Assembly (NCBI GenBank): GCA_000025185.1
Contig: CP001848.1
Span: forward strand, 4,350,001 to 4,382,000
DNA: 32,000 nt
Direction: 5' to 3'
Source: Pirellula staleyi DSM 6068
GTDB lineage: Bacteria > Planctomycetota > Planctomycetia > Pirellulales > Pirellulaceae
Part shown: in pieces, positions 19,650 through 31,593 of the stretch
Layout of the letters: every line of letters begins with the position of its first letter
How positions within the stretch are numbered: the first letter of the stretch is position 1
Made by a program: the position numbers and the translations under genes
The notes under the pieces: generated by a model
What the model saw: the letters and a program-made list of their open reading frames with translations, nothing else
What the model was told of the DNA's origin: nothing
Databases searched by the model: none

Positions 19650-20282
19650 CTAACTCGCTGGCGTTTCTCGCTTCTGAAACACCAGCGTGACGAGCATCCC
19701 GCCGAACAGGCCAAACAGCGTGCCGAGGATGGCGTGCGCGCTGGAGCGCGTGCCGGGAGAATTCGAAAGAATTTGCGTCCCTGGGGTCCACTGCGGCGCG
19801 CTCCCGTCGGTCCATTTCACCAGGTAGTTACTCCCCTCGATCTCTGCGATCGTGCCGGAGTAGTAGCTGCCGTTCCGCCAGCGGGCCATCACCGTTGCCC
19901 CGACATAGCGCGAGCCGATCACGTTTTGCTCGATCAGTTCGACGAGGCTCGACGTAATCATTTTGGAAACGGGGCGGAGATTCGAAGTGCCGCTGGGGAC
20001 CATGATCACGCCCGGCGATTGAACCATCTGCTCGAACGACGAAACCGCCTCGTATTCGGTGAAGAGATAGGTCCACCCAAAGATCGCAGCGCCGAGCCAA
20101 AACAGCTTGTCGTTCCCGAGGGTCGCAATCGCCCCGGCAGTCGCTAGACAGACAACGCTGATATAGACCGTCAGCGCCACGCTTCCGGCGATTTCGGATT
20201 TCGAGACCATGAGGGCCAGCAGCACCGACAGCAGTGTGAGGGCTGAGAGTCCTCCCGACATCGAGAATCGAAGGCCACGCAT
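19650..20282 (-). CDS. Membrane protein with an inserted Tudor/SH3-like domain
   Basis: ATG at 20282. There are three N-terminal TMs and one C-terminal TM. The loop contains VGATVMARWRNGSYYSGTIAEIEGSNYLVKWTDGSAPQWT, which follows the Tudor pattern (A.W..G.YY.G.I..I....Y.V.W.DG). Confidence 0.65.
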   Translation of the reverse strand: MRGLRFSMSGGLSALTLLSVLLALMVSKSEIAGSVALTVYISVVCLATAGAIATLGNDKLFWLGAAIFGWTYLFTEYEAVSSFEQMVQSPGVIMVPSGTSNLRPVSKMITSSLVELIEQNVIGSRYVGATVMARWRNGSYYSGTIAEIEGSNYLVKWTDGSAPQWTPGTQILSNSPGTRSSAHAILGTLFGLFGGMLVTLVFQKRETPAS

Positions 20283-20785
20283 AGTGCTAACGTCCTGTCT
20301 CAACGATGTGTCTGTCGCTGCTCGAAATCACGTCACCTAGGCGAGGCTCATCTTGTTGCCCCAAGTGGCTAGCGATTCGTGGCAGGCGGGAGCCTGCTCT
20401 ACGAGTCTGTCGTTCAAGGCTCAAAACCAGGCAATTCGCTTCAGGGTGTCGAGCTACGGCATTGTAGGGCTCTGGGGACTCTCTTCGCGAGCCTTCTCAG
20501 GGGGTGGAAATCTGTAACTTCCACGTAAAGATGCCCCATAGAACGCCGAGCGCCTACGAGCCAAAATGGTGGGGATGTCCCGATTGCTACGCCTCACCAC
20601 CGGCCCGGGGATCGCGCGAGCGGAAACTTACCAATTCACTCTGATTCTCGAGGCACACGCAAGCCGAAGCTGACCAACACCCTGCCGCTTCGAAACTTGC
20701 TCGTTGCTCCCCTTGGCTATGCTTTTGGGGGCCGCGTCGCCGACTTACTCGATTTTCCCGAATTTGCGGGGGAGAGATTGTTTCT

Positions 20786-21610
20786 GTGGCATCCATCATC
20801 GACGACGTGCAGCTTCCAGCCGACCAATCCAACTTTCCAACGACGGCGCTCGATCTGCGTGAATCGCTCCGTCCGATTCGAGCGAAGCTCGTCGGGCATC
20901 GACTCTACTCCAAGATTCGCACGATCGACGATTTGCGACTCTTCCTCGAGCATCATGTGTTCGCGGTGTGGGATTTCATGTCGCTGCTGAAGTGGCTGCA
21001 GCGCTCCTACACCTGTGTCGAAACGCCTTGGCTGCCGAGTCGCGATCCACTCACGCGCCGCCTGATTAACGAGATTGTGCTGGCCGAAGAGTCGGACGAC
21101 GATGGGGAAGGGGGCTACACGAGCCATTTTGAGATGTACCTTGCGGCGATGAACGCTTGCCATGCCAGTGCTGCGCCGATTAGCGCGCTGGTGCAATATT
21201 TGGCCGAGGGAGCTTCGATCGAAAGCGCCCTCGAGCGCTGCGGTGGCCCAGCAGCGGCGACTACGTTTGTACGCTCGACCATGCAGCTGATCCACGAGGG
21301 GAATCGCTCGAAAATCACAGCCGCCTTTGCCCTGGGGCGCGAGGATGTGATTCCCGACATGTTTCGGATGATTGTGGCCGATCTCGAGCAGCAGTTTCCG
21401 GGTGAACTCGCGACGCTGCGGCTCTATCTCGAGCGGCACATTTCGCTCGACGAAGAGACCCACACGCCACTCGCTCTGCGGATGCTGACGCAAGTGGCTA
21501 GCGAAGATGAAAACGGCTGGCGCGACGCGCACGAGGCAGCTCAGCAATGCCTGCTTGAGCGGCTCCGTTTGTGGGACGCCATTGCCGACGCGCTCGATGC
21601 TCGTGTGTAG
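20786..21610 (+). CDS. DUF3050 family protein (heme-oxygenase-like fold)
   Basis: GTG start; 274 aa. Strong DUF3050 signature: LFLEHHVFAVWDFMSLLKWLQ, INEIVLAEESD, SHFEMYLAAM, AAFALGREDVIPDMF, LYLERHISLDEETH. Confidence 0.85.
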   Translation: MASIIDDVQLPADQSNFPTTALDLRESLRPIRAKLVGHRLYSKIRTIDDLRLFLEHHVFAVWDFMSLLKWLQRSYTCVETPWLPSRDPLTRRLINEIVLAEESDDDGEGGYTSHFEMYLAAMNACHASAAPISALVQYLAEGASIESALERCGGPAAATTFVRSTMQLIHEGNRSKITAAFALGREDVIPDMFRMIVADLEQQFPGELATLRLYLERHISLDEETHTPLALRMLTQVASEDENGWRDAHEAAQQCLLERLRLWDAIADALDARV

Positions 21611-21714
21611 TTCGCCGCGCATTGGTCGCGCTATGCCTCTGCATTCAGACGCCTCAAAAACTTGCGATTTCCTAGCTCCGCTCGACCACTCCCGCAAAAG
21701 GTTCTCTCCACCGT

Positions 21715-22773
21715 ATGCCCGAGTCGCCACTCCCTCATGCCACGATTGATCCGACCTCAATTTTCGAGCACTTTCGTGGCAATCATGGGACCGAACTGCT
21801 GACGGCAGCAGCGGCCCATTTTCGGCTGTTCGATAAGCTGGCGGCTGGTCCCCTCGCGTGGCATGAACTTCGGAGTCAACTGGCCCTGGCCGAGCGCCCC
21901 TTGGTGGTGCTGATCACGGCGCTGCGTGCGATGCGGCTGATCGAGCGCGCGAGCGACAAGTATCGGCTCACGCCGCTGGCGCGCGAGCACCTGGTTTCGA
22001 CTTCGCCACTGTCGGTCGCCGACTACATCGGTCTCGCCGCCGAGTCTCCCGGTGTGCTGGCGATGGTCGAGCGATTACGCACCGATCTTCCGGCCGGAGC
22101 CAAGTCCGACACCGACGAGGGAGCGGGAACTGCGTTCATTTATCGCGAGGGGACCGACTCGGCGATGGAGCAGGAGGCTTCCGCGCGGCATCTCACGCTC
22201 GCGCTGGCCGGACGAGCAAAAAATGTGGCACCGGTTTTGGCCGATGTCCTTCCGCTCGCAGGGGATGAAACGCTGCTCGATCTCGGTGGCGGCACCGGGA
22301 TCTACAGCATCGCGCTCTTGCGAAAATATCCGCAGCTGCGCGCGATCGTGCTCGATCGGCCCGAGGTGCTGAAAGTCTCGCATGAATTTGCCGAGCAGTA
22401 TGGGGTCGCCGATCGTTTAGAGCTCTTGGCGGGAGATATGTTCAGCGCCGCGCTGCCCGCAGGAGTCGACCGCGTGCTCCTTTCCAACATCTTGCACGAC
22501 TGGGATGTTCCTGAGTGCATCGAGCTGCTGAAGCGTTCTGCAGCGGCTCTTTCGGTGCGTGGCGAAGTGCTGATTCACGATGTGTTTCTGAGCGACGAAC
22601 TCGATGGACCACTCCCGATCGCGCTCTATTCGGCGGCTCTCTTTACGCTCACCGAAGGGCGAGCCTATAGCGCTGCGGAGTATCGCGCGATGCTCGGCGC
22701 AGCTGGGCTCACAGCGGGACAGGTAATCCCCACGCTGATTCACTGCGGTGTGCTTGTCGCGCGACGCGCGTAA
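21715..22773 (+). CDS. Class I SAM-dependent O-methyltransferase (family 2, with N-terminal dimerisation/winged-helix domain)
   Basis: 352 aa. SAM motif I is LLDLGGGTGIYSIALLRKYPQLRAIVLDRP, followed by GDMF and the LSNILHDW motif typical of COMT-like O-methyltransferases. Confidence 0.85.
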   Translation: MPESPLPHATIDPTSIFEHFRGNHGTELLTAAAAHFRLFDKLAAGPLAWHELRSQLALAERPLVVLITALRAMRLIERASDKYRLTPLAREHLVSTSPLSVADYIGLAAESPGVLAMVERLRTDLPAGAKSDTDEGAGTAFIYREGTDSAMEQEASARHLTLALAGRAKNVAPVLADVLPLAGDETLLDLGGGTGIYSIALLRKYPQLRAIVLDRPEVLKVSHEFAEQYGVADRLELLAGDMFSAALPAGVDRVLLSNILHDWDVPECIELLKRSAAALSVRGEVLIHDVFLSDELDGPLPIALYSAALFTLTEGRAYSAAEYRAMLGAAGLTAGQVIPTLIHCGVLVARRA

Positions 22774-23013
22774 TGACGTCTGCGTCGTGTGCAGCTCCGA
22801 TTAAGGCCAGTTTGTAGCGATTTTGACACCTTTGAGCCCTGGCGAGCGCTGCATCGCGCCACTTCTTCGGAAAATGCATCGTCTGCCTATCAAGCCGAAC
22901 GTTGCGGTCGTAGCACAGCCGCCAGCCGTAGTAGATCGATCGATTCCGAGCGGTCGATAAGTAAGAAAGTGCGTCACCTCGCACAGGCGGAACCACGAGG
23001 TGCGGAATTGATT

Positions 23014-24495
23014 ATGTCTTGTCACATCGCGAAGTATTTGCTGGCGGCCAAGGCCGTTTGCGATCGCGGTGCGCGACGAGCGATCCATTTCAGCCTGCTT
23101 TGGTTCGGCGCACTCGGCTGGCTCCTCGGCGCTTCGAGCGCTACTGCCCAGCCCGGCTTTCTGCCGATCGATAATCTCCGCCACGCGCAGCCGGCTTATC
23201 GCGGGGGCTCTTCAGCCACCGTAGCCCGCCCTATCTCGGGTGGAGCGCCGCAAACACCGCACCCAGCAATCGTGCGTGTCGTCGTCGCCGAGAAAGAGGG
23301 AATCTCGCTCGGCAGCGGCACGCTGATTGATGTTCGTGGCGAGTGGGGGCTGGTGATCAGCAACTGGCATGTCGTGCGCGATGCGGCTGGTCCGATTCAA
23401 ATTCAATTCGCCAATGGCTACGTCGCACCCGCAACCGTGGTGAAGACCGATAGCGACTGGGATCTCGCTGCCCTTTCGGTCCATAAGCCGAGCGCTGCTC
23501 CGATTCCGCTGGCAGGGGCCGCGCCTCAGCCGGGCGAACCGCTGTCGATCGCCGGTTACGGATCGGGTAGCTACCGAGTGGCGAGTGGCCGCGTCACGCA
23601 GTACCTCGCGCCGGGTGTGAAGTTTCCGTATGAGATTGTGGAAGTCTCGGCCGAAGCTCGCCAAGGAGATTCGGGGGGACCGATCCTCAACGCGCGCGGC
23701 GAACTGGCCGGGGTGCTGTTCGGGTCGGCGGGCGGTTTGACGTCGGGAAGCTATGTCGGCAGGGTGCGCGAGTTTTTGGTCGGCGTCTTGCCAGCTGGTA
23801 ACGCGTTGCCAGGTGCAGCCGCTCCGATGGTCGCTTCTCCAGCGCCCCGTTTTCCGGTCCCTAGTACACCGCAAATGCCTGGGAATTTGCCCCCTTTTGC
23901 GACCGAGCTGGCCCAGGCCAATCCCGCGAGCTCTGGCTGGAAACCGGCCACTTCGTCGCGCGAATCACTGGAGTCGAGCGCCGCCGATCAGCCTCGCGAG
24001 CCGAGCAGCGCCGGGGATCGCGCGCGGATTGTCGATCAGCCTCTCACGCAGGTCGGCGACCATGTCGGCAACGAAAACGCGCCGCTGATGGATGCTCCAC
24101 CACCATCGGCACCCGAACGGGCGATCGATCTTTCTCCAGCGACACGTCCGGTTCTCGAGGCGACACCAGCCGACCGTTTGGCGGTGGTCGACGAGCCGCG
24201 CGCAGTGGCGCTACAGTCGCTCGAAGATGAAGAAGAACAGCCGACATCGCGTGGCCTGGGGATCATTCACTCCCCGCTTCCACCGCGTAGTTCGCAAATG
24301 ACAACCGCCGGGGGAATCTCTCCCGATGCGCCAGCCGAACAACTCTTGGCCGCTGCTTGGAGACAGATTGCGGGGAGCACGTTCTACGATCAGGCCAAAA
24401 CCGTGTTTGCCGTGGTCGGCATCCTGCTATTGCTGGGACACTTCTACCGGATGAACGCGCAGCCCGAAGAGGAAGTCCATCCCGAAGAAGAGTAG
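23014..24495 (+). CDS. Trypsin-like (S1/S1C-type) serine protease with long Pro-rich region and C-terminal TM
   Basis: The ATG at 23014 gives an N-terminal hydrophobic segment (FSLLWFGALGWLLGASSATAQ). Catalytic-triad context is present: ISNWHVV (His), DWDLAAL (Asp) and QGDSGGPIL (Ser). A ~190-aa disordered Pro/Ala/Ser segment follows, then the TM segment VFAVVGILLLLGHFY. Confidence 0.8.
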   Translation: MSCHIAKYLLAAKAVCDRGARRAIHFSLLWFGALGWLLGASSATAQPGFLPIDNLRHAQPAYRGGSSATVARPISGGAPQTPHPAIVRVVVAEKEGISLGSGTLIDVRGEWGLVISNWHVVRDAAGPIQIQFANGYVAPATVVKTDSDWDLAALSVHKPSAAPIPLAGAAPQPGEPLSIAGYGSGSYRVASGRVTQYLAPGVKFPYEIVEVSAEARQGDSGGPILNARGELAGVLFGSAGGLTSGSYVGRVREFLVGVLPAGNALPGAAAPMVASPAPRFPVPSTPQMPGNLPPFATELAQANPASSGWKPATSSRESLESSAADQPREPSSAGDRARIVDQPLTQVGDHVGNENAPLMDAPPPSAPERAIDLSPATRPVLEATPADRLAVVDEPRAVALQSLEDEEEQPTSRGLGIIHSPLPPRSSQMTTAGGISPDAPAEQLLAAAWRQIAGSTFYDQAKTVFAVVGILLLLGHFYRMNAQPEEEVHPEEE

Positions 24496-24549: not shown

Positions 24550-26076
24550 CTACGCAATAGCCCGCACGAGTACGAGTTTATCGTCTCCCGGCAAGTAGAA
24601 ATCTTTCAGCACCGCTTCGAGCTGATAGCCGCAGCGCTCGTAGAACTTTTGCGTCGGAAGGTACTCTGCTTTCCCCGACGTTTCGATGTAGATGCGACGC
24701 CCACCAGCACGGCGCACTTCTTCCTCGGCACGCGCGAGAAGCTTTCGCCCCACCCCCATTTTTTGTAGCGCCGGATCGACCGCAATCCAGTAGAGATCGT
24801 AGCTTCCTTCGGTCACGGAAATCGGACCGTAACAGGCGTAGCCCACCACCGCGCCATCGATTTCAGCGAAGAGAAATTCGTAGCCCGAAGCGGCTCCTTT
24901 CGCGAGTCGCTCCTCGACTAGCTCGACCGCGACTCCAATTTCCGCTTCGCGAAAGAATCCGGTCGCGCGCACAATCCGCTCGACGTTTTTTAGATCGCTG
25001 TGAGTCACCTCGGTACGAATCAGCATCGCGGATGCTGACGTTTCGCTCGCTACGACTTGGCTGGGTGCAACAACAGCCGCGCGCTCGGAGCGCCGCAGCG
25101 GAGCGAGCACGATCTGCTGAATCGCTTCCTCGAGCGAGCGGCCCGACTGCGCAGCAGCGGCAGCAAAACCGGCATCGGGGGAAAGGCACGGATTGGTGTT
25201 CACCTCGAGCAGCAGCGGCTGAGCCTGTTGATCGACCCGAAAGTCGATCCGCGCATAGCCCGACAGCTGCAGCGACTTCCAAGCCTCGCGGCTGAGCTTT
25301 TCCAGCAGCGCGAGGAGCGGGCCATCGGACGCCGGAAAATCGAACGTGCGCGGCGTTCCTGTAAACTCGGCCGAATCAGCGCTCCACTTGGCGTCGTACC
25401 CCACAATGCGCGGTTTTCCGGCGGGAAAATCGACAAACAGGATCTCCGCGATTGGCAGCACCTCGACACCTTGCTCGGTCGCCAAGAGCGAGACGTTGAA
25501 CTCGCGCCCGTCGATAAACTGCTCGGCGAAGCAGGGGGTCCCCAAACGGGCTGCCTGCGCGCGAATCGCTGCTGCCACATCGGCCGCCGGACCTAAGACC
25601 ACGCAGCTGTCGTCGAGGCCCAGCGACGCGTGCTGGCCAATCGCCTTCACGATCCACGGGGGACGAAGTTCAGCGCTCGCGTTCCCCGCGTCATCCAGGG
25701 TGCACCACGCCGCTGTCGGCAACTGTTTCTCGCGCAGCAATTGCTTGGTCGCGATTTTGTCGTTGCTCAGCTGCAGCGCTCTGGCTGAAGAGCCGGTGAT
25801 CGGCACGCCGCGCGCTTCCACTAGACGAACAAACAGCTCGGCCAGCTGATCGCTGCCGGCGAGGGACTCGACGAGATTAAACACCACATCGAATCGGCCG
25901 CTAGTGAGCAGTTGATCGACTCGGGTGAAGTCGAGCGACGTTTCGCACACCTCCACTGGCCAGCCAGCGGCACGGCAGGCCTGCTCGACGACAGCCACTT
26001 GCTCGAGAACGTCGCGGTCGGAAACGAGCGCATCGCTTCCGACATGCTGATGCACAATCAAAACGCGCGGAATCAT
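24550..26076 (-). CDS. Fusion protein: D-Ala-D-Ala-ligase-like ATP-grasp domain + C-terminal GNAT N-acetyltransferase
   Basis: The ATG at 26076 overlaps the upstream stop (ATGA, 26073-26076). The ATP-grasp region includes WIVKAIGQHASLGL, EQFIDGREFNVSLL and ARIDFRVD...LLLEVNTNPCL. The GNAT domain spans the last ~158 aa (24553-25026) and carries acetyl-CoA motif A, IAVDPALQKMGVGRKLL. Confidence 0.85.
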   Translation of the reverse strand: MIPRVLIVHQHVGSDALVSDRDVLEQVAVVEQACRAAGWPVEVCETSLDFTRVDQLLTSGRFDVVFNLVESLAGSDQLAELFVRLVEARGVPITGSSARALQLSNDKIATKQLLREKQLPTAAWCTLDDAGNASAELRPPWIVKAIGQHASLGLDDSCVVLGPAADVAAAIRAQAARLGTPCFAEQFIDGREFNVSLLATEQGVEVLPIAEILFVDFPAGKPRIVGYDAKWSADSAEFTGTPRTFDFPASDGPLLALLEKLSREAWKSLQLSGYARIDFRVDQQAQPLLLEVNTNPCLSPDAGFAAAAAQSGRSLEEAIQQIVLAPLRRSERAAVVAPSQVVASETSASAMLIRTEVTHSDLKNVERIVRATGFFREAEIGVAVELVEERLAKGAASGYEFLFAEIDGAVVGYACYGPISVTEGSYDLYWIAVDPALQKMGVGRKLLARAEEEVRRAGGRRIYIETSGKAEYLPTQKFYERCGYQLEAVLKDFYLPGDDKLVLVRAIA

Positions 26077-27101
26077 AGCTGTTTGCGCGGAAGACGTCGC
26101 GCCTTGCTCTGCCGTGAAGCTGCCACGCGCGGAGTCGCGCAAGCGATGATCGCCCCGATCAGCTCGGTGTAGGTCATGCCGATTTTGGTCGCGAGCATTG
26201 GCAAATCCGAATGTTCGGGGTGCAAACCGGCCAGCGGGTTCACTTCCAAAAGGTACGGTTTTCCCAAGCTATCGCAGCGAATATCAACCCGCCCTGCATC
26301 GCGACAGCCGAGCGTTTTCCAGGTCGCCAGCGACAGAGCTTCCACTTCCTTAACGAGCGGATCATCGGCAGGTCGAATCAGATCGTAGATGATCAGCTCT
26401 TCGCAGTTCTCTTTGTTGCGATAGGTGTACCCCACCTGATCGGAATCGCTGCGGAGTTTGATTTCGAGCGAACCGAGCACACGTGTGCTGACTCCTTCTC
26501 CGAGCAAACCGGTGGTGAACTCTCGGCCGTCGAGGTAGGTCTCGACCAACACGCTTTGCTGATGCTCGCGGAGCAGATGCTCGCAGATCGCGCGTAGCGC
26601 TTCAGGCGATGTGACTTTCGAGAGGCTGGTGACCCCTTTGCTCGTCCCTTCGGCAATCGGCTTGGCGAACAGCGGATAGGGGAGGGTAAGTCCCTCGAGA
26701 TCTTCGAGCTTACTGATCACCGCAAACGGCGCTGTCGGAAGTCCCGCCGCCGCGAGGACTTGTTTGGTCAGCCCTTTGTGGAGCGTGAGGCTCATCACCA
26801 GCGGATCGGAAAAGGTGTAGGGGATGCCGTACACATCGAGGATCGCTGGCACTTGCGCCTCGCGCCCCATCCCTTCGATCCCCTCGGCAATATTGAGAAC
26901 GAGATCCCAGTCGTCTCCTGCGGTGAGTCGCGCCATGAGCGCTCGCGCACTCCCGATCCGATCGCTGGTGTGACCAAGCTCGGCGAGCGCTTGCTCGAGA
27001 TGAACGATCGTGTCGTCGCGGTCGAATTCAGCCGCATCGTCGAGCGACATGCCGAGCGCGACATATTCCGAGCGTAGGTCGTAGGTAATTCCAATCCGCA
27101 T
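26073..27101 (-). CDS. D-alanine--D-alanine ligase family ATP-grasp protein (non-canonical Ddl paralogue)
   Basis: 342 aa. Motifs: GREAQVPAILDVYGIPYTFSDPLVMSLTLHKGLTKQVL, LFAKPIAEGTSKGV, VETYLDGREFTTGLL, GRVDIRCDSLGKPYLLEVNPLAGL. It lacks the canonical Ddl N-terminus (GGxSxEHEVS). Confidence 0.85.
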   Translation of the reverse strand: MRIGITYDLRSEYVALGMSLDDAAEFDRDDTIVHLEQALAELGHTSDRIGSARALMARLTAGDDWDLVLNIAEGIEGMGREAQVPAILDVYGIPYTFSDPLVMSLTLHKGLTKQVLAAAGLPTAPFAVISKLEDLEGLTLPYPLFAKPIAEGTSKGVTSLSKVTSPEALRAICEHLLREHQQSVLVETYLDGREFTTGLLGEGVSTRVLGSLEIKLRSDSDQVGYTYRNKENCEELIIYDLIRPADDPLVKEVEALSLATWKTLGCRDAGRVDIRCDSLGKPYLLEVNPLAGLHPEHSDLPMLATKIGMTYTELIGAIIACATPRVAASRQSKARRLPRKQL

Positions 27102-27150
27102 GGTCGGGCGATCTACTGCTTACAAGCGAGAGTCAGGAAGTCTAGCGTTT

Positions 27151-27345
27151 CGTCTAGCGATGAATGTCATGGAGCAACGAACAGTCTGCCATCCAGTGTG
27201 CCACTGGGCTCTGCCCAGTTCGAAGTGTGAAGGGAGTCGATGTTTCAAGGAGATTTCACCAAAACATCGTTTCCAACTTCTGCACTGGCAAGATGCCAAT
27301 GGCTCCCAACAACAACTGCCATTGCTCGATAGACGAAGTACTAGG
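27151..27345. repeat. Second small intergenic repeat family, copy X2
   Basis: CGTCTAGCGATGAATGTCAT (27151-27170) and CGATAGACGAAGTACTAG (27327-27344) bracket ~155 nt. The same two motifs are adjacent and in swapped order at 251-293. The interior holds two mutually exclusive hairpins, CCAGTG-tgc-CACTGG (27193-27207) and ACTGGGC-tct-GCCCAGT (27203-27219). Confidence 0.4.
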
Positions 27346-27358
27346 GAGCCAACAAGGT

Positions 27359-27847
27359 TTAACCGGGATCGCCCGAGACGATTTCTTCGTACAGCTGTTT
27401 GTGCCACCGCTCGGCATCGGTCTGGTTCATGTCGAGCGCTTCGAGCAACGTCTGACCGATTTGCAGCAGCTGCGTCGGACAGCCGTCGGACAACCCACCT
27501 GTCAGTCCAGTGTGGTTGTACTGAAATGGATAGATGCGGCAAACGAGGGGTCGCACTTCCAGCGGAAGGACGCAGCCCGCGTTTCCGAGGAACATGCAGT
27601 CCCCATTTTCCTTCCGCTTCAGAACCCGCCGCGTCATGTCGGGACGAAACACATGCGCGAGCCAAACCGGGTCGTCGTCGTGCTGCAAATAGACTGGATC
27701 ATCCGGGTAGCGATACTCGGTGAAGTCGGTGAGCCCGGTATGCTCGGCGATCCGCTCGGTATCGCCTGCCGTCGGATGAATTTCGCACGATTGGCAGCAG
27801 GTGAGCTGCACGCGCGAGCAGCGCACGCAAAGGAATTCTTCAGACAT
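27359..27847 (-). CDS. YkgJ-family cysteine-cluster protein (CxxCxxCC, UPF0153)
   Basis: The ATG at 27847 gives MSEEFLCVRCSRVQLTCCQSCE. This is followed by ENGDCMFLGNAGCVLPLEVRPLVCRIYPF, matching the CxxCxxCC ... C.FL...C.....RP..CR.YPF pattern of this putative Fe/Zn-binding family. Confidence 0.7.
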   Translation of the reverse strand: MSEEFLCVRCSRVQLTCCQSCEIHPTAGDTERIAEHTGLTDFTEYRYPDDPVYLQHDDDPVWLAHVFRPDMTRRVLKRKENGDCMFLGNAGCVLPLEVRPLVCRIYPFQYNHTGLTGGLSDGCPTQLLQIGQTLLEALDMNQTDAERWHKQLYEEIVSGDPG

Positions 27848-28031
27848 CGGAAAGCATCGCTTCGAAAAACGCGGAGGGACCGAATGAACAATGGATTCGT
27901 GCTGTGCTGAGCTATGCCGGTAACACGGGCACCCCGTACCCACGTCTAGCTAGTCACACAGCCAGTCCGCTGCGACATCCACCCCGCAAGGTGGATGCCG
28001 CAACGCTGGGATGACGATGGCTCGAGGGCCT

Positions 28032-29342
28032 TTAAGGCGTCGGATCGGGATAGCGATAAACCTGCCCTTCGTAGTTGCGCAGCAGCAGGTCGTTGCCATC
28101 GCGACCGACGACGTAGTTCGGCTGAAGTGGAATTTTTCCACCACCGCCGGGGGCATCGATCACATAAGTCGGCACTGCGTAGCCGGTCGTATGCCCACGC
28201 AAACCTTCGATGATTTCGAGTCCTTTGGAGACCGAAGTTCGAAAGTGAGCCGAACCGCTGATCGGATCGCATTGATAGATGTAGTAAGGACGTACGCGCA
28301 TCATCAGCAAGCGATGCACAAGATCCTTCATCGTGTCGACCCGGTCGTTCACCCCTTTGAGCAGCACCGTTTGCGAACCGAGCGGAATGCCAGCGTCGGC
28401 TAGCCGCGCGCATGCTTGGTTTGCCTCCGGCGTGCATTCGTCGGGGTGCAGGAAGTGGATGCTCATCCAGAGGGGCGAATACTTTTTGAACACCCGGATC
28501 AGCTGCGGGGTGATGCGCTGCGGCAAAACCGCCGGCATCTTGGTCCCGATGCGGACGAACTCCAGGTGGGGAATCGATCGGAGCCGACCGAGAATCCAGT
28601 CGAGTTTGTCTTCGCTGAGGGCCAGAGGATCGCCACCACTGATCAGCACGTCGCGAATCGTCGGAGTTTGGCGAATGTATTCAAACGCCTTCTCCAGACG
28701 CTGTTCGCTCGGCATGATTTCGCCATGTCCGACCACGCGCGACCGGGTGCAGTAGCGGCAGTAGGTGCTGCAGAAATCGAGCGCCAGCAGGAGTACCCGA
28801 TCGGGATAGCGATGGACCAGCCCTGGTGTTGGACTATGACCATCTTCTCCGAGCGGATCGTCGGCTTCCCCCGGCGTACGGAGGAATTCGCCAGTCACCG
28901 GCACCACCGTGCGGCGGAGAGGCTGATTGGCATCCTCGCGGTCGAGCAGGCTCATGTAGTAGGGGGTGATCCCTACCGGCAACATCGAGCCGCCGTCGAC
29001 CAGCGCCTGACGCTCGTCGCTCGACAGAACCAGCATCTTTTCGAACTGCTGCAGCGTCCGGATGCGGTTGCGCGATTGCCAGCGCCAATCGTTCCAGTCG
29101 CGGTCGGCAACTTCAGGAAAGAAGGCGCGGCGAAAAGCGCGGGTACGAGTCGTTGTGCGTGGTCGCTTGAAAGCAGGTGCGACGAAGCTGGCGGGCTCGG
29201 TCGGCAGACTCGCTGGCGCGATTCGACTCGTGGGAGTGACAACGGGTAAAGAAAATTCCGAGGTGGTTGTTTCGAACCTACTACTTGGAGGTTCTTCAAG
29301 GTCAACGGAAACAATCGACTGCTCGCAGTCGGACTGAGTCAT
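28032..29342 (-). CDS. kamA: Lysine 2,3-aminomutase-like radical SAM/PLP enzyme (KamA family)
   Basis: Motifs: DWNDWRWQSRNRI, HRYPDRVLLL, radical SAM CSTYCRYCTRS, GGDPL, YIYQCD...HFRT, VIDAPGGGGKIPL (PLP Lys). I prefer the ATG at 29342 (436 aa); the ORF is open to 29474 (480 aa). The N-terminal 60-105 aa are low-complexity. Confidence 0.9.
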   Translation of the reverse strand: MTQSDCEQSIVSVDLEEPPSSRFETTTSEFSLPVVTPTSRIAPASLPTEPASFVAPAFKRPRTTTRTRAFRRAFFPEVADRDWNDWRWQSRNRIRTLQQFEKMLVLSSDERQALVDGGSMLPVGITPYYMSLLDREDANQPLRRTVVPVTGEFLRTPGEADDPLGEDGHSPTPGLVHRYPDRVLLLALDFCSTYCRYCTRSRVVGHGEIMPSEQRLEKAFEYIRQTPTIRDVLISGGDPLALSEDKLDWILGRLRSIPHLEFVRIGTKMPAVLPQRITPQLIRVFKKYSPLWMSIHFLHPDECTPEANQACARLADAGIPLGSQTVLLKGVNDRVDTMKDLVHRLLMMRVRPYYIYQCDPISGSAHFRTSVSKGLEIIEGLRGHTTGYAVPTYVIDAPGGGGKIPLQPNYVVGRDGNDLLLRNYEGQVYRYPDPTP

Positions 29343-29902
29343 ATATAGATGTCCAGGAGACACGGAAAAAAGCCTGCGCTCGCCACGGTTTTCCTCCCGA
29401 GGTGCGCCAGACCGCCAACACAGCGGCCTAATAAGAGTGGTCGCCGCGAGCCATTCGCGGACGTCCGGAACCAACCAACCGATTTCAAGGGACGTTTTTG
29501 GGGCCGAATCAAACGGCGCGTCGCTTGTTTTCCAGACCGATACAGCGTCTGGCAGCCAGCAAAGTCATCGTCTCTGCGAGCTTTAGGGATGCCCACCTCG
29601 ACGGGCAACAAATTTCGGTCGATCGAAAGCGGTCGCACTGGCCCGAAGTGAGCCAAGCGGGGATTCGATAGGTCAGCACCACCAGGCAAAACTGCCGTGT
29701 AAGAGAGCAGTCGTGCCACACTCAGGTCACGAGCTCGCTGTTGCGATCGAGTGGCAGCGATGGTAACGGGTGTTACATCGCCCCCAGCAGACATTCCCAG
29801 CTTCCTGGAATTGCCACTACGAACTACTCGACGAACTTGCCAAGACAACGCAGTTTGACTTTGTTGCGGCACATCCACCGAGATTCGCCACTGGCTATCC
29901 AT
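29339..29902 (-). CDS. Possible hypothetical protein with degenerate PilZ-like motif (very uncertain)
   Basis: 187-aa ORF whose TGA overlaps the preferred kamA ATG (ATGA at 29339-29342). It contains RRVVR ... ~30 aa ... RDLSVARLLSYTAVLPGG, resembling the PilZ pattern RxxxR...DxSxxG with Gly replaced. Third-position GC (~55% by my hand count) is not elevated and the C-terminus looks non-protein-like. Confidence 0.25.
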   Translation of the reverse strand: MDSQWRISVDVPQQSQTALSWQVRRVVRSGNSRKLGMSAGGDVTPVTIAATRSQQRARDLSVARLLSYTAVLPGGADLSNPRLAHFGPVRPLSIDRNLLPVEVGIPKARRDDDFAGCQTLYRSGKQATRRLIRPQKRPLKSVGWFRTSANGSRRPLLLGRCVGGLAHLGRKTVASAGFFPCLLDIYI

Positions 29903-30228: not shown

Positions 30229-31593
30229 TTGAAAAACGGCGCTACCACCGATCCTCCTCCCGCTCCAAGCACCTGGCTGCTGTGGCAACGCGCCCTGCCA
30301 TTCGCCACGCTGTTTGGGGTGGTCTACTTCGTGCAAGGCTTTGCCGAACCGACTGCGGGGCTCGTTTCGCAGCCATTTGTCGATAGTTTTTCGAGTGCCG
30401 GTTTCGCCGCCACCGAAATCGGGGCCTGGCTCGGAATCGTCGGCCTCCCTTGGTCGATCAAGCCACTCGCCGGACTGATGATCGACTTCATTCCCCTGGG
30501 AAGACTGGGGAGAAGCGGCTGGCTACTGCTCGGGAATTTGCTCAGCATCGTCGGCTATGGCTGTGCGGCGCTCACGCTCCTGCTGGCGGGCGGGGAAGGA
30601 CTCGTCGCAGCGCTGCTGCTGGCCAGTTCCGGGGTCGCAATCGCCGATGTCGCCACCGATGCCTTGGCGATTTCCCGGGGACAGCCGCTCGGGATCACCG
30701 GGCAACTGCAGTCGGTGCAGTGGGGAGCCCTTTCGCTCGCGGGGATTCTCGCTGGCGAACTGGGGGGCTATCTCGCCGCCAGCAATCGGCTGGGGCTCGG
30801 GATGGTCGTTTGCGCGCTGCTGGGTCTCTTGGTGATTGCGGTGCAGTTGATTTTGCGCGTCTTACATCCAGCGGTGATCGTCGAGCACGCGCCGCCCGTC
30901 ATCAGCTCTGATGAACCAACAGCCGCTCGGGCGTCGACACTCGGCGAGGCCTACCGGCAGCTGATCCTGGCAGCCCAAAGTCGACTGGTAATCACCACCG
31001 GGCTGTTTCTGTTCCTCTGGAGTTTCAATCCGTTCTCTACGGCGGTGCTGCAAAGCTACGCCACCGACATCCTGGGGCTCGACGAGCAGTTTTATGGGCG
31101 ACTCATCAGCGTGCAGTGCCTGGCGATGTTCGTGACCGCCTGTGTCTACGGCATCATCTGCCGCATGGTTGCGATGCGGGTGCTCGTGCATCTCTCCATC
31201 GCCGCCGGCATCGCCTGCACACTCGCTTACTGGGGATTCAGTGGCGCTACTTCGGGGGTGATTGTCACGCTGTTTGTCGGAGCGGCCTACATGCTCGGAA
31301 CCTTGATTCAGCTCGACCTGGCGGCCCGCGTCGTTCCGATCCGCTCGGCCGGAACCGTCTTCGCGCTTTTGATGGCGATCAGCAATTCGGGACTCTCGGC
31401 CAGCCTCACCGTGGGTGGCTTTCTCTACGATCAGCTCTTCCTGTGGACCGAAAGTCGTCACGCCGCCTTTCATCTGCTCGTCGGAATTGGGGGGCTCTCC
31501 ACCTCCCTCTGCTGGCTCGTCGTGCCGTTTCTTCCGCCACTCGATGATCGGCCAATTTCCCCGGCCAAGGCTGCCGATGTGACAGAAACGTAA
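30229..31593 (+). CDS. MFS-type transporter of the folate-biopterin transporter (BT1) family
   Basis: 454 aa with ~12 predicted TMs. BT1-like N-terminal motifs are YFVQGF and GLPWSIKPLAGLMIDFIPLGRLGRSGWLL. The only in-frame start after the upstream stop (30184) is TTG at 30229, so the start is uncertain. Confidence 0.75.
   Translation: MKNGATTDPPPAPSTWLLWQRALPFATLFGVVYFVQGFAEPTAGLVSQPFVDSFSSAGFAATEIGAWLGIVGLPWSIKPLAGLMIDFIPLGRLGRSGWLLLGNLLSIVGYGCAALTLLLAGGEGLVAALLLASSGVAIADVATDALAISRGQPLGITGQLQSVQWGALSLAGILAGELGGYLAASNRLGLGMVVCALLGLLVIAVQLILRVLHPAVIVEHAPPVISSDEPTAARASTLGEAYRQLILAAQSRLVITTGLFLFLWSFNPFSTAVLQSYATDILGLDEQFYGRLISVQCLAMFVTACVYGIICRMVAMRVLVHLSIAAGIACTLAYWGFSGATSGVIVTLFVGAAYMLGTLIQLDLAARVVPIRSAGTVFALLMAISNSGLSASLTVGGFLYDQLFLWTESRHAAFHLLVGIGGLSTSLCWLVVPFLPPLDDRPISPAKAADVTET

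Follow-up and report, generated by a model that had tools for sequence, protein, structure and literature searches.

What does a bacterium make with a lysine aminomutase, two ATP-grasp ligases and an acyltransferase whose genes lie side by side? This question was raised by four consecutive minus-strand genes (ADB18043 to ADB18040) in a 32,000-nt stretch of the Pirellula staleyi DSM 6068 genome (contig CP001848.1, positions 4,350,001 to 4,382,000), called the window below. The locus was identified through its fusion protein, which is 100% identical to ADB18040. The genes encode a KamA-type aminomutase, a YkgJ-family cysteine-cluster protein, an ATP-grasp ligase of the Ddl fold (AG1), and a second such ligase (AG2) fused to a GNAT domain. 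An earlier note on this DNA had placed four open reading frames (ORFs) here and assigned these domains to them. The ORF reading of the window confirmed the four genes, and profile searches (LAM_C, Radical_SAM, PF03692, PF07478 and PF00583) bore out the domains. We consider it rather probable that the cluster is a conserved operon whose enzymes build a small cytoplasmic molecule, an N-acetylated amide or peptide, from beta-lysine.

To examine the conservation of the cluster, an AG2-GNAT profile was run against a single genome from each species, and it matched at least 593 loci. The best 80 of these at least 593 loci were analysed with 10-kb flanks; most lay on contigs of metagenome-assembled genomes (MAGs). 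To judge from the record titles, they came from Planctomycetota (including anammox bacteria and Phycisphaerales), Desulfobacterota, Syntrophia, lineages related to Verrucomicrobiota (Lentisphaerae/Kiritimatiellia), Krumholzibacteria and Spirochaetota, with single MAGs from Acidobacteria, Clostridia and Proteobacteria. Among the loci with enough flank, KamA was found in 51 of 58, AG1 in 53 of 58 and the GNAT in 54 of 60. YkgJ was found in 8 of the 58, and in 11 of the 80 overall.

Nearly all loci kept the order KamA-(YkgJ)-AG1-AG2-(HDAC)-GNAT on one strand, where HDAC denotes an optional histone deacetylase. The exceptions were L038, in which AG1 followed AG2-GNAT, and L051 and L071, in which KamA lay on the opposite strand. 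The median gap across loci was 54 bp between KamA and AG1, and 4 bp between AG1 and AG2. The gaps of 184 bp (kamA/ykgJ) and 257 bp (ykgJ/AG1) in P. staleyi, which were as the earlier note had given them, are therefore atypical. Tight coupling had been thought to be limited to the ATP-grasp pair. This holds in P. staleyi, where the two genes overlap by an ATGA, but not elsewhere, the median distance between KamA and AG1 being short.

AG2 and the GNAT formed one ORF in 30 loci and adjacent genes in 23. They were separated by a GNAT-HDAC gene in 15 loci and by a transporter-like ORF in one. The fusion is thus real in P. staleyi, but merely one of three architectures (fused, adjacent and HDAC-split). 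Because the collinear order recurs in dozens of species of several phyla, the arrangement of KamA, AG1, AG2 and GNAT goes far beyond chance, and the view of the four as a functional unit was supported, as far as gene order can tell. The predicted co-occurrence of the four genes therefore stood for these proteins, in order and strand and across phyla, but not for YkgJ.

ORF clustering over the 80 loci revealed no further conserved neighbour (transporter, regulator, amidotransferase or second-substrate enzyme): beyond the core, YkgJ and HDAC, none occurred in more than 7 of them. No conserved small ORF that might encode a carrier protein or a precursor of a RiPP (a peptide made on the ribosome and modified after translation) was found in these loci, which yielded shadow frames inside the HDAC gene and one 82-aa ORF in four loci. 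A search with an EF-P query found no efp in the window or in the 1.15 Mb of flanks of the 80 loci. No mur or dcw genes were linked to the cluster, and in the loci that lacked a GNAT nothing was conserved downstream of AG2.

Several local features of these loci were observed (coordinates in Table 1). The ORF of about 82 aa (MALKKVQNTTLTGIVIPADWNDDQEV...) was confined to four loci of Syntrophia/Acidobacteria type, where it lay just upstream of KamA. The inserts within the L008 and L009 clusters, an insertion sequence (IS) transposase and an unrelated ATPase, respectively, were uninformative. The former, an IS-type transposase/integrase by eye, lay between KamA and AG1 in a deltaproteobacterial MAG and split the operon. 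In Desulfatirhabdium butyrativorans (L077), the gene between AG2 and GNAT encoded a multi-pass membrane protein of 463 aa that by eye resembled a transporter; it was the only transporter inside any of the 80 clusters. In a spirochaete (L041), the cluster was followed directly, on the opposite strand, by one more GNAT, which stands alone, and by a second AG2-like ATP-grasp gene.

KamA matched LAM_C with 88.8 bits and Radical_SAM with 44.4 bits, and gave 483.8 bits with the lysine 2,3-aminomutase of Clostridium subterminale, whose structure has been solved (2A5H). Residues C235, C239, C242, R244 and K447 of the 480-aa ORF correspond to C125, C129, C132, R134 and K337 in 2A5H numbering. These are the CxxxCxxC motif of radical-SAM enzymes, the carboxylate-binding arginine and the lysine that binds pyridoxal phosphate (PLP). 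D403 and D440 correspond to D293 and D330, the aspartates that hold the epsilon-ammonium group of lysine. All these positions were kept in 57 of 57 cluster-linked orthologs. In glutamate 2,3-aminomutase the two aspartate positions are reportedly Lys and Asn, as Ruzicka and Frey are said to have found in 2007.

The protein passed the subfamily model TIGR00238 (337.5 against a cut-off of 199.2). Its best equivalog was AblA (TIGR03820), with 500.8 bits, narrowly under the cut-off of 525.4, and the EpmB model (TIGR03821) gave 239.2 against 369.3. The retained lysine-binding residues and the model scores make it well supported that KamA is lysine-specific and forms beta-lysine, as had been proposed. 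Identity with glutamate or arginine 2,3-aminomutase was rejected on the residues and on the models, which scored lower and far under their cut-offs. A catabolic role in lysine fermentation was also rejected: no kamDE, kdd or kce-type genes were linked, and ligases that consume ATP would be biosynthetic. Ahead of the region aligned with 2A5H, the protein carries an N-terminal extension, which measures about 70 aa when counted from the annotated start and about 115 aa when counted in the longest ORF. Its C-terminus is about 46 residues shorter than that of the clostridial enzyme.

The two ligases matched PF07478 with 101 bits (AG1) and 61 bits (AG2). With the Ddl family model NF002378 they gave 156.4 and 106.4 bits, respectively, against a cut-off of 243, which was thus missed by about 90-140 bits; all Ddl equivalog models were missed by hundreds of bits. 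AG1 and AG2 were about 27-31% identical to each other and 24-28% identical to genuine Ddl enzymes. AlphaFold models of the two (pLDDT 87 each; AG1 87.3) matched the three-domain Ddl fold in Foldseek, with target TM-scores of 0.82-0.84. The AF2 model of AG1 gave a TM-score of 0.84 at 26% identity with Ddl, and that of AG2 about 0.82.

Residues were surveyed in 66 AG1 and 79 AG2 orthologs, in DdlB numbering. K97, K144, E180, E187, K215, R255, D257, E270 and N272, the catalytic residues for ATP, Mg and acyl phosphate, were invariant in the 66 AG1 orthologs and in 78-79 of the 79 AG2 orthologs. On the other hand, most of the positions that bind D-Ala in DdlB (H63, S150, Y216 and S281/L282) were replaced. 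AG1 had E for H63, T for S150, E for Y216 and D for L282, and kept S281. AG2 had E for H63, A for S150, W for Y216, A for S281 and G for L282. Both sets were near-invariant among the orthologs. Further replacements in the 79 AG2 proteins were Y210 to V and G276 to C. The N-terminal part of the alignment with DdlB (E15, H63) is less secure.

Since the catalytic residues were kept, the D-Ala positions replaced and the Ddl cut-offs missed, AG1 and AG2 are, by their sequences, active ligases with non-Ddl substrates. This agreed with the view that they are non-canonical members of the Ddl family. Where Ddl binds D-Ala, both ligases have E63, and AG1 also has E216 and D282; these acidic residues suggested a substrate with cationic amino groups, such as beta-lysine or lysine. 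The pocket of AG2 would be roomier and less acidic (A150, W216, A281, G282), and AG2 may accept a larger or acetylated intermediate. In public records AG1 and its homologs P0135-P0253 are automatically annotated as D-alanine--D-alanine ligase. Judged from these residues and scores, the label is probably wrong, a systematic misannotation.

The GNAT domain gave 57.8 bits with PF00583 (cut-off 20.7). Its acyl-CoA motif, Q/RxxGxG/A, reads QKMGVGR, in which G441 and G443 were invariant. With Dde_3044 (PDB 2R7H), a structural-genomics GNAT from Desulfovibrio G20, the domain gave 168.9 bits, 52% identity and a TM-score of 0.98, and on this likeness it is an ortholog of that protein. Dde_3044 stands alone, whereas the P. 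staleyi domain is fused. The depositor's name for 2R7H, 'putative D-alanine N-acetyltransferase', seems to have been guessed from its context. In the literature, the tags Dde_3042-3047 gave a sole match, Dde_3047, an unrelated phosphatase.

The AblB model (TIGR03827) gave 15.8 bits with the GNAT domain, against a cut-off of 205.1, and the Ngg model (TIGR03103) gave 10.2 against 569. By these scores the domain is neither AblB nor Ngg, and the distinction from those two systems that had been drawn earlier was upheld. The closest named NCBIfam model was RimI, with 57 bits, under its cut-off of 86.4.

Two accessory genes accompanied the core. YkgJ, which NCBI names a YkgJ family protein, passed PF03692 marginally (25.0 bits; gathering cut-off 23). 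Its N-terminal motif in P. staleyi reads CxxC-x6-CCxxC rather than the CxxCxxCC of the earlier note. Eight cysteines were conserved across the 11 positional orthologs, and the gene always lay between KamA and AG1 (11 of the 80 loci, in Planctomycetota and Desulfobacterota). By this distribution it is a recurrent accessory gene of fixed position and does not belong to the core. Its product, probably an Fe-S protein, would either serve KamA as a partner or modify a lysine amine. In the flagellin lysine N-methyltransferase FliB, a cysteine motif that has been called similar to PF03692 binds [4Fe-4S] and supports methylation of the lysine epsilon-amine. FliB has eight conserved cysteines, as have the YkgJ orthologs. 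However, its motif is CX4CX3CC and the protein is much larger; set beside YkgJ by its motif, it is the one biochemical lead for that protein, and no more than a lead.

The other accessory gene, GNAT-HDAC, encodes a protein of 585 aa whose N-terminal domain is GNAT-like and whose C-terminal domain is that of a histone deacetylase (PF00850, 249 bits). It lay between AG2 and the terminal GNAT in the 15 loci mentioned above, which belonged to Planctomycetota, Desulfobacterota and Krumholzibacteria. No HDAC homolog was found in the P. staleyi window. In the species that have it, this optional enzyme would make the acetyl group removable, either as a transient protecting group or in product turnover.

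From these parts we propose a pathway, inferred as to its substrates, sequence of steps, product and role. KamA would convert L-lysine to beta-lysine, the sole step that is well supported by sequence. AG1 and AG2 would each activate a carboxylate by forming an acyl phosphate, and each make one ATP-dependent amide bond. The GNAT would N-acylate, probably acetylate, a free amine of the product, of an intermediate or of a substrate. This would neutralise charge, by analogy with N-epsilon-acetyl-beta-lysine and N-acetylglutaminylglutamine amide. A small-molecule product is favoured because no efp, no carrier or precursor ORF and no other protein target was conserved nearby. For its role, a compatible solute or polyamine-like metabolite is our leading guess. 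A bolder extension, which we regard as possible though doubtful, is that the cluster makes an oligo(beta-lysine) or beta-lysyl peptide without ribosome or non-ribosomal peptide synthetase (NRPS), its charge being switched by GNAT and HDAC, or that it holds an ATP-grasp analogue of EpmA that beta-lysylates a protein.

In its logic the system resembles AblAB and Ngg, which make acetyl-capped solutes derived from amino acids, and it borrows the Ddl scaffold; by the profile scores it falls outside AblB, Ngg, Ddl and EpmB. The AblA/AblB pathway of methanogens and some bacteria makes N-epsilon-acetyl-beta-lysine. It shares with the P. staleyi cluster a KamA-type aminomutase with all the lysine-binding residues, followed by a GNAT, and AblA was the best-scoring equivalog. 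However, the P. staleyi GNAT is unrelated to AblB at the family level, two ATP-grasp ligases intervene, and KamA lies below the AblA cut-off and departs from the clostridial enzyme at both ends. Ngg/AsnO also joins a GNAT and an ATP-grasp domain in one polypeptide and follows the same logic of ligation and acetyl cap. On the other hand, it shows no family-level similarity, the domain order in P. staleyi is reversed, the ATP-grasp domain is of the Ddl type, no AsnO-like amidotransferase was conserved in the 80 loci, and the precursor here would be beta-lysine, not glutamine.

The Ddl/Van family shares with AG1 and AG2 the three-domain fold and the full set of ATP, Mg and acyl-phosphate residues. 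It differs from them by the low identity and scores given above, by the replacement of H63, S150, Y216 and L282, and by the lack of a dcw/mur context. In EpmA/EpmB, a KamA-family aminomutase likewise makes beta-lysine before an amide bond is formed, but the ligase EpmA is a paralog of lysyl-tRNA synthetase and no ATP-grasp enzyme, and the P. staleyi cluster has no linked efp. As the earlier note had supposed, no cluster of KamA with ATP-grasp ligases was found described in the searchable literature; the 2009 amidoligase survey by Iyer et al. might list the neighbourhood. A Pelobacter genome paper mentions ablAB only, and the KamA of B. subtilis is still listed with unknown physiological role (PMC6522883).

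A number of points weigh against the proposed pathway. The product, and the use of beta-lysine by AG1 and AG2, are predictions, and the pocket argument rests on the alignment with DdlB. The 80 loci are a non-random sample, and the co-occurrence of the GNAT is partly built in, because similarity to AG2-GNAT decided the ranking of the loci. A nearby GNAT was missing in 6 loci and a nearby KamA in 7. The two long gaps leave co-transcription in P. staleyi unproven. No transporter, regulator or riboswitch was conserved, so that nothing points to osmotic control. The guess of an osmolyte is further weakened by the origin of P. staleyi and many other carriers from freshwater, sludge and sediment.

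Four other explanations were weighed. The ligases might attach beta-lysine supplied by KamA, with a second residue perhaps, to the side chain or terminus of a protein, as EpmA or RimK do, or to a peptidoglycan precursor, with the GNAT and HDAC acetylating and deacetylating the adduct. KamA-family enzymes do supply beta-lysine for the modification of EF-P in E. coli (PMC6522883), HDAC-type enzymes (PF00850) include protein deacetylases, and RimI, the closest named model for the GNAT, is a protein N-acetyltransferase, if a sub-cut-off match. The lack of a conserved transporter or regulator of the kind seen in solute pathways also fits. However, neither the window nor the 1.15 Mb of flanks held efp, and no target gene, small carrier protein or mur/dcw linkage was conserved. 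AG1 and AG2 share the fold of Ddl rather than that of RimK or TTL, and the known enzymes with the Ddl fold act on small molecules; KamA is much nearer to AblA/KamA than to EpmB. We regard such modification as unlikely. Alternatively, AG1 and AG2 might start and extend a chain, either oligo- or poly(beta-lysine) or a mixed beta-lysyl one, independently of the ribosome and of NRPS, the GNAT capping and the HDAC uncapping its amino terminus. This iterative synthesis was likened to the ATP-grasp steps of cyanophycin or RimK. The two distinct ligases with acidic pockets would suit a polycationic chain, a capping and uncapping pair is present in 15 loci, and no second-substrate enzyme was conserved in the cluster, so that beta-lysine may be the sole building block. 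Yet Ddl-type enzymes are not known to be iterative, genes for export or associated with granules are absent, and the idea is wholly inferential; we hold it to be quite unlikely.

Plain synthesis of N-epsilon-acetyl-beta-lysine in the manner of AblA/AblB would need only the aminomutase and the acetyltransferase, both of which are present, and KamA comes just below the AblA cut-off. The ATP-grasp genes would then be a separate matter, for example alternative D-Ala-D-Ala ligases, as the public annotation of AG1 has it. This explanation became improbable in view of the score of the GNAT against AblB, the replaced Ddl specificity residues and the missed Ddl cut-offs. Moreover, AG1 and AG2 sit between KamA and the GNAT, in most species with overlaps or with hardly any gap, and in 30 loci AG2 and the GNAT are a single fusion. 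Finally, the genes could be neighbours by chance, without shared function; the long gaps in P. staleyi, across which no shared promoter or terminator signal was detected, would allow this. The synteny effectively refuted it, since order and strand are kept in dozens of species of several phyla, with tight spacing and fusion. Neither a lack of co-conservation nor a grouping of the ATP-grasp proteins with true Ddl, the two computable outcomes that the earlier note had named as counting against its proposal, was found.

The layout of the locus is given in Table 1. The start of AG2-GNAT was placed at ATG 26076, not TTG 26142, on which the homolog alignment and the public annotation agree. A disordered linker (residues 334-348 of ADB18040) connects AG2 to the GNAT. 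No Rfam match at E<=1 was found in the two gaps or upstream of the cluster, and a scan of the P. staleyi cluster gave no promoter-like sites. Terminator-like sites were at background (8 observed against 6.1 +/- 2.9 in shuffled sequence).

Genes on the opposite strand bound the cluster, namely those of a trypsin-like protease and a BT1-family transporter. The former gene is convergent with the cluster and is not conserved beside it elsewhere; its product, a trypsin-like serine protease (PF13365, 73 bits), has a long C-terminal region rich in Pro, Ala and Ser and a hydrophobic segment at the end. The remaining genes of the window are typical of planctomycetes and unrelated to the cluster. Among them is a gene for a DUF3050 / haem-oxygenase-like iron redox protein (319 bits), followed directly by one for an O-methyltransferase (PF00891, 105 bits); the pair may be a two-gene tailoring unit, unrelated to the cluster. 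A 217-aa predicted membrane protein gave a sub-threshold Tudor-like match (PF18104, 28.9 against 31.4 bits), which is unusual in a bacterium.

Table 1. Positions of the cluster genes in the window, followed by neighbouring genes and by features of loci in other species
Feature	Position	Strand	Remarks
kamA: L-lysine 2,3-aminomutase, radical S-adenosylmethionine (SAM) + PLP	28032..29342	(-)	436 aa, ADB18043; annotated ATG at 29342; longest ORF 28032-29474, 480 aa
Gap kamA/ykgJ	27848..28031	.	184 bp
ykgJ-family cysteine-cluster protein, probable Fe-S or Zn protein, accessory member	27359..27847	(-)	162 aa, ADB18042
Gap ykgJ/AG1	27102..27358	.	257 bp
AG1: Ddl-fold ATP-grasp ligase, predicted non-Ddl specificity	26073..27101	(-)	342 aa, ADB18041
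AG2-GNAT fusion	24550..26076	(-)	508 aa, ADB18040
AG2 domain: second Ddl-fold ATP-grasp ligase	25078..26076	(-)	residues 1-333 of ADB18040
GNAT acyl-CoA N-acyltransferase domain	24550..25032	(-)	residues 349-508 of ADB18040 + stop codon
ATGA overlap of AG1 stop and AG2 start codons, translational coupling	26073..26076	(-)	read from sequence
Trypsin-like serine protease	22789-24495	(+)
BT1-family transporter	30229-31593		strand opposite to the cluster
DUF3050 protein and O-methyltransferase	20786-22773	(+)
Predicted membrane protein, Tudor-like match	19650-20303	(-)	217 aa
GNAT-HDAC between AG2 and GNAT	L047:10976-12733		also L048, L049, L053, L056, L059, L061, L064, L066, L068, L070, L073, L076, L078, L079
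ORF of about 82 aa upstream of KamA	L028:2868-3116, L057:5171-5419, L062:50-283, L063:8242-8358
IS-type transposase/integrase	L008:7559-8731	(-)	between KamA and AG1
Transporter-like membrane protein	L077:2156-3547		463 aa, between AG2 and GNAT
Extra GNAT and second AG2-like gene	L041:6112-7497		opposite strand, directly after the cluster

To our knowledge, beta-lysine has few known roles in bacteria and archaea: as an osmolyte precursor, in the modification of EF-P, as an intermediate of lysine fermentation and as a building block of antibiotics. The cluster adds to its biology two dedicated amide-forming ligases, carried at no fewer than 593 loci at the species level in several phyla. Among the carriers are groups that matter in the environment, namely anammox bacteria, syntrophs, sulfate reducers and planctomycetes. 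P. staleyi DSM 6068 is a cultured organism, in which the hypothesis can be tested directly. Identification of the product would reveal a new beta-lysine metabolite and define two new ATP-grasp substrate specificities. It would also correct thousands of 'D-alanine--D-alanine ligase' annotations and assign the structural-genomics protein 2R7H a function. Should the product be an oligo(beta-lysine), it would represent a new class of polyamine-like cytoplasmic metabolites, made by ATP-grasp enzymes in hundreds of species from Planctomycetota to Desulfobacterota.

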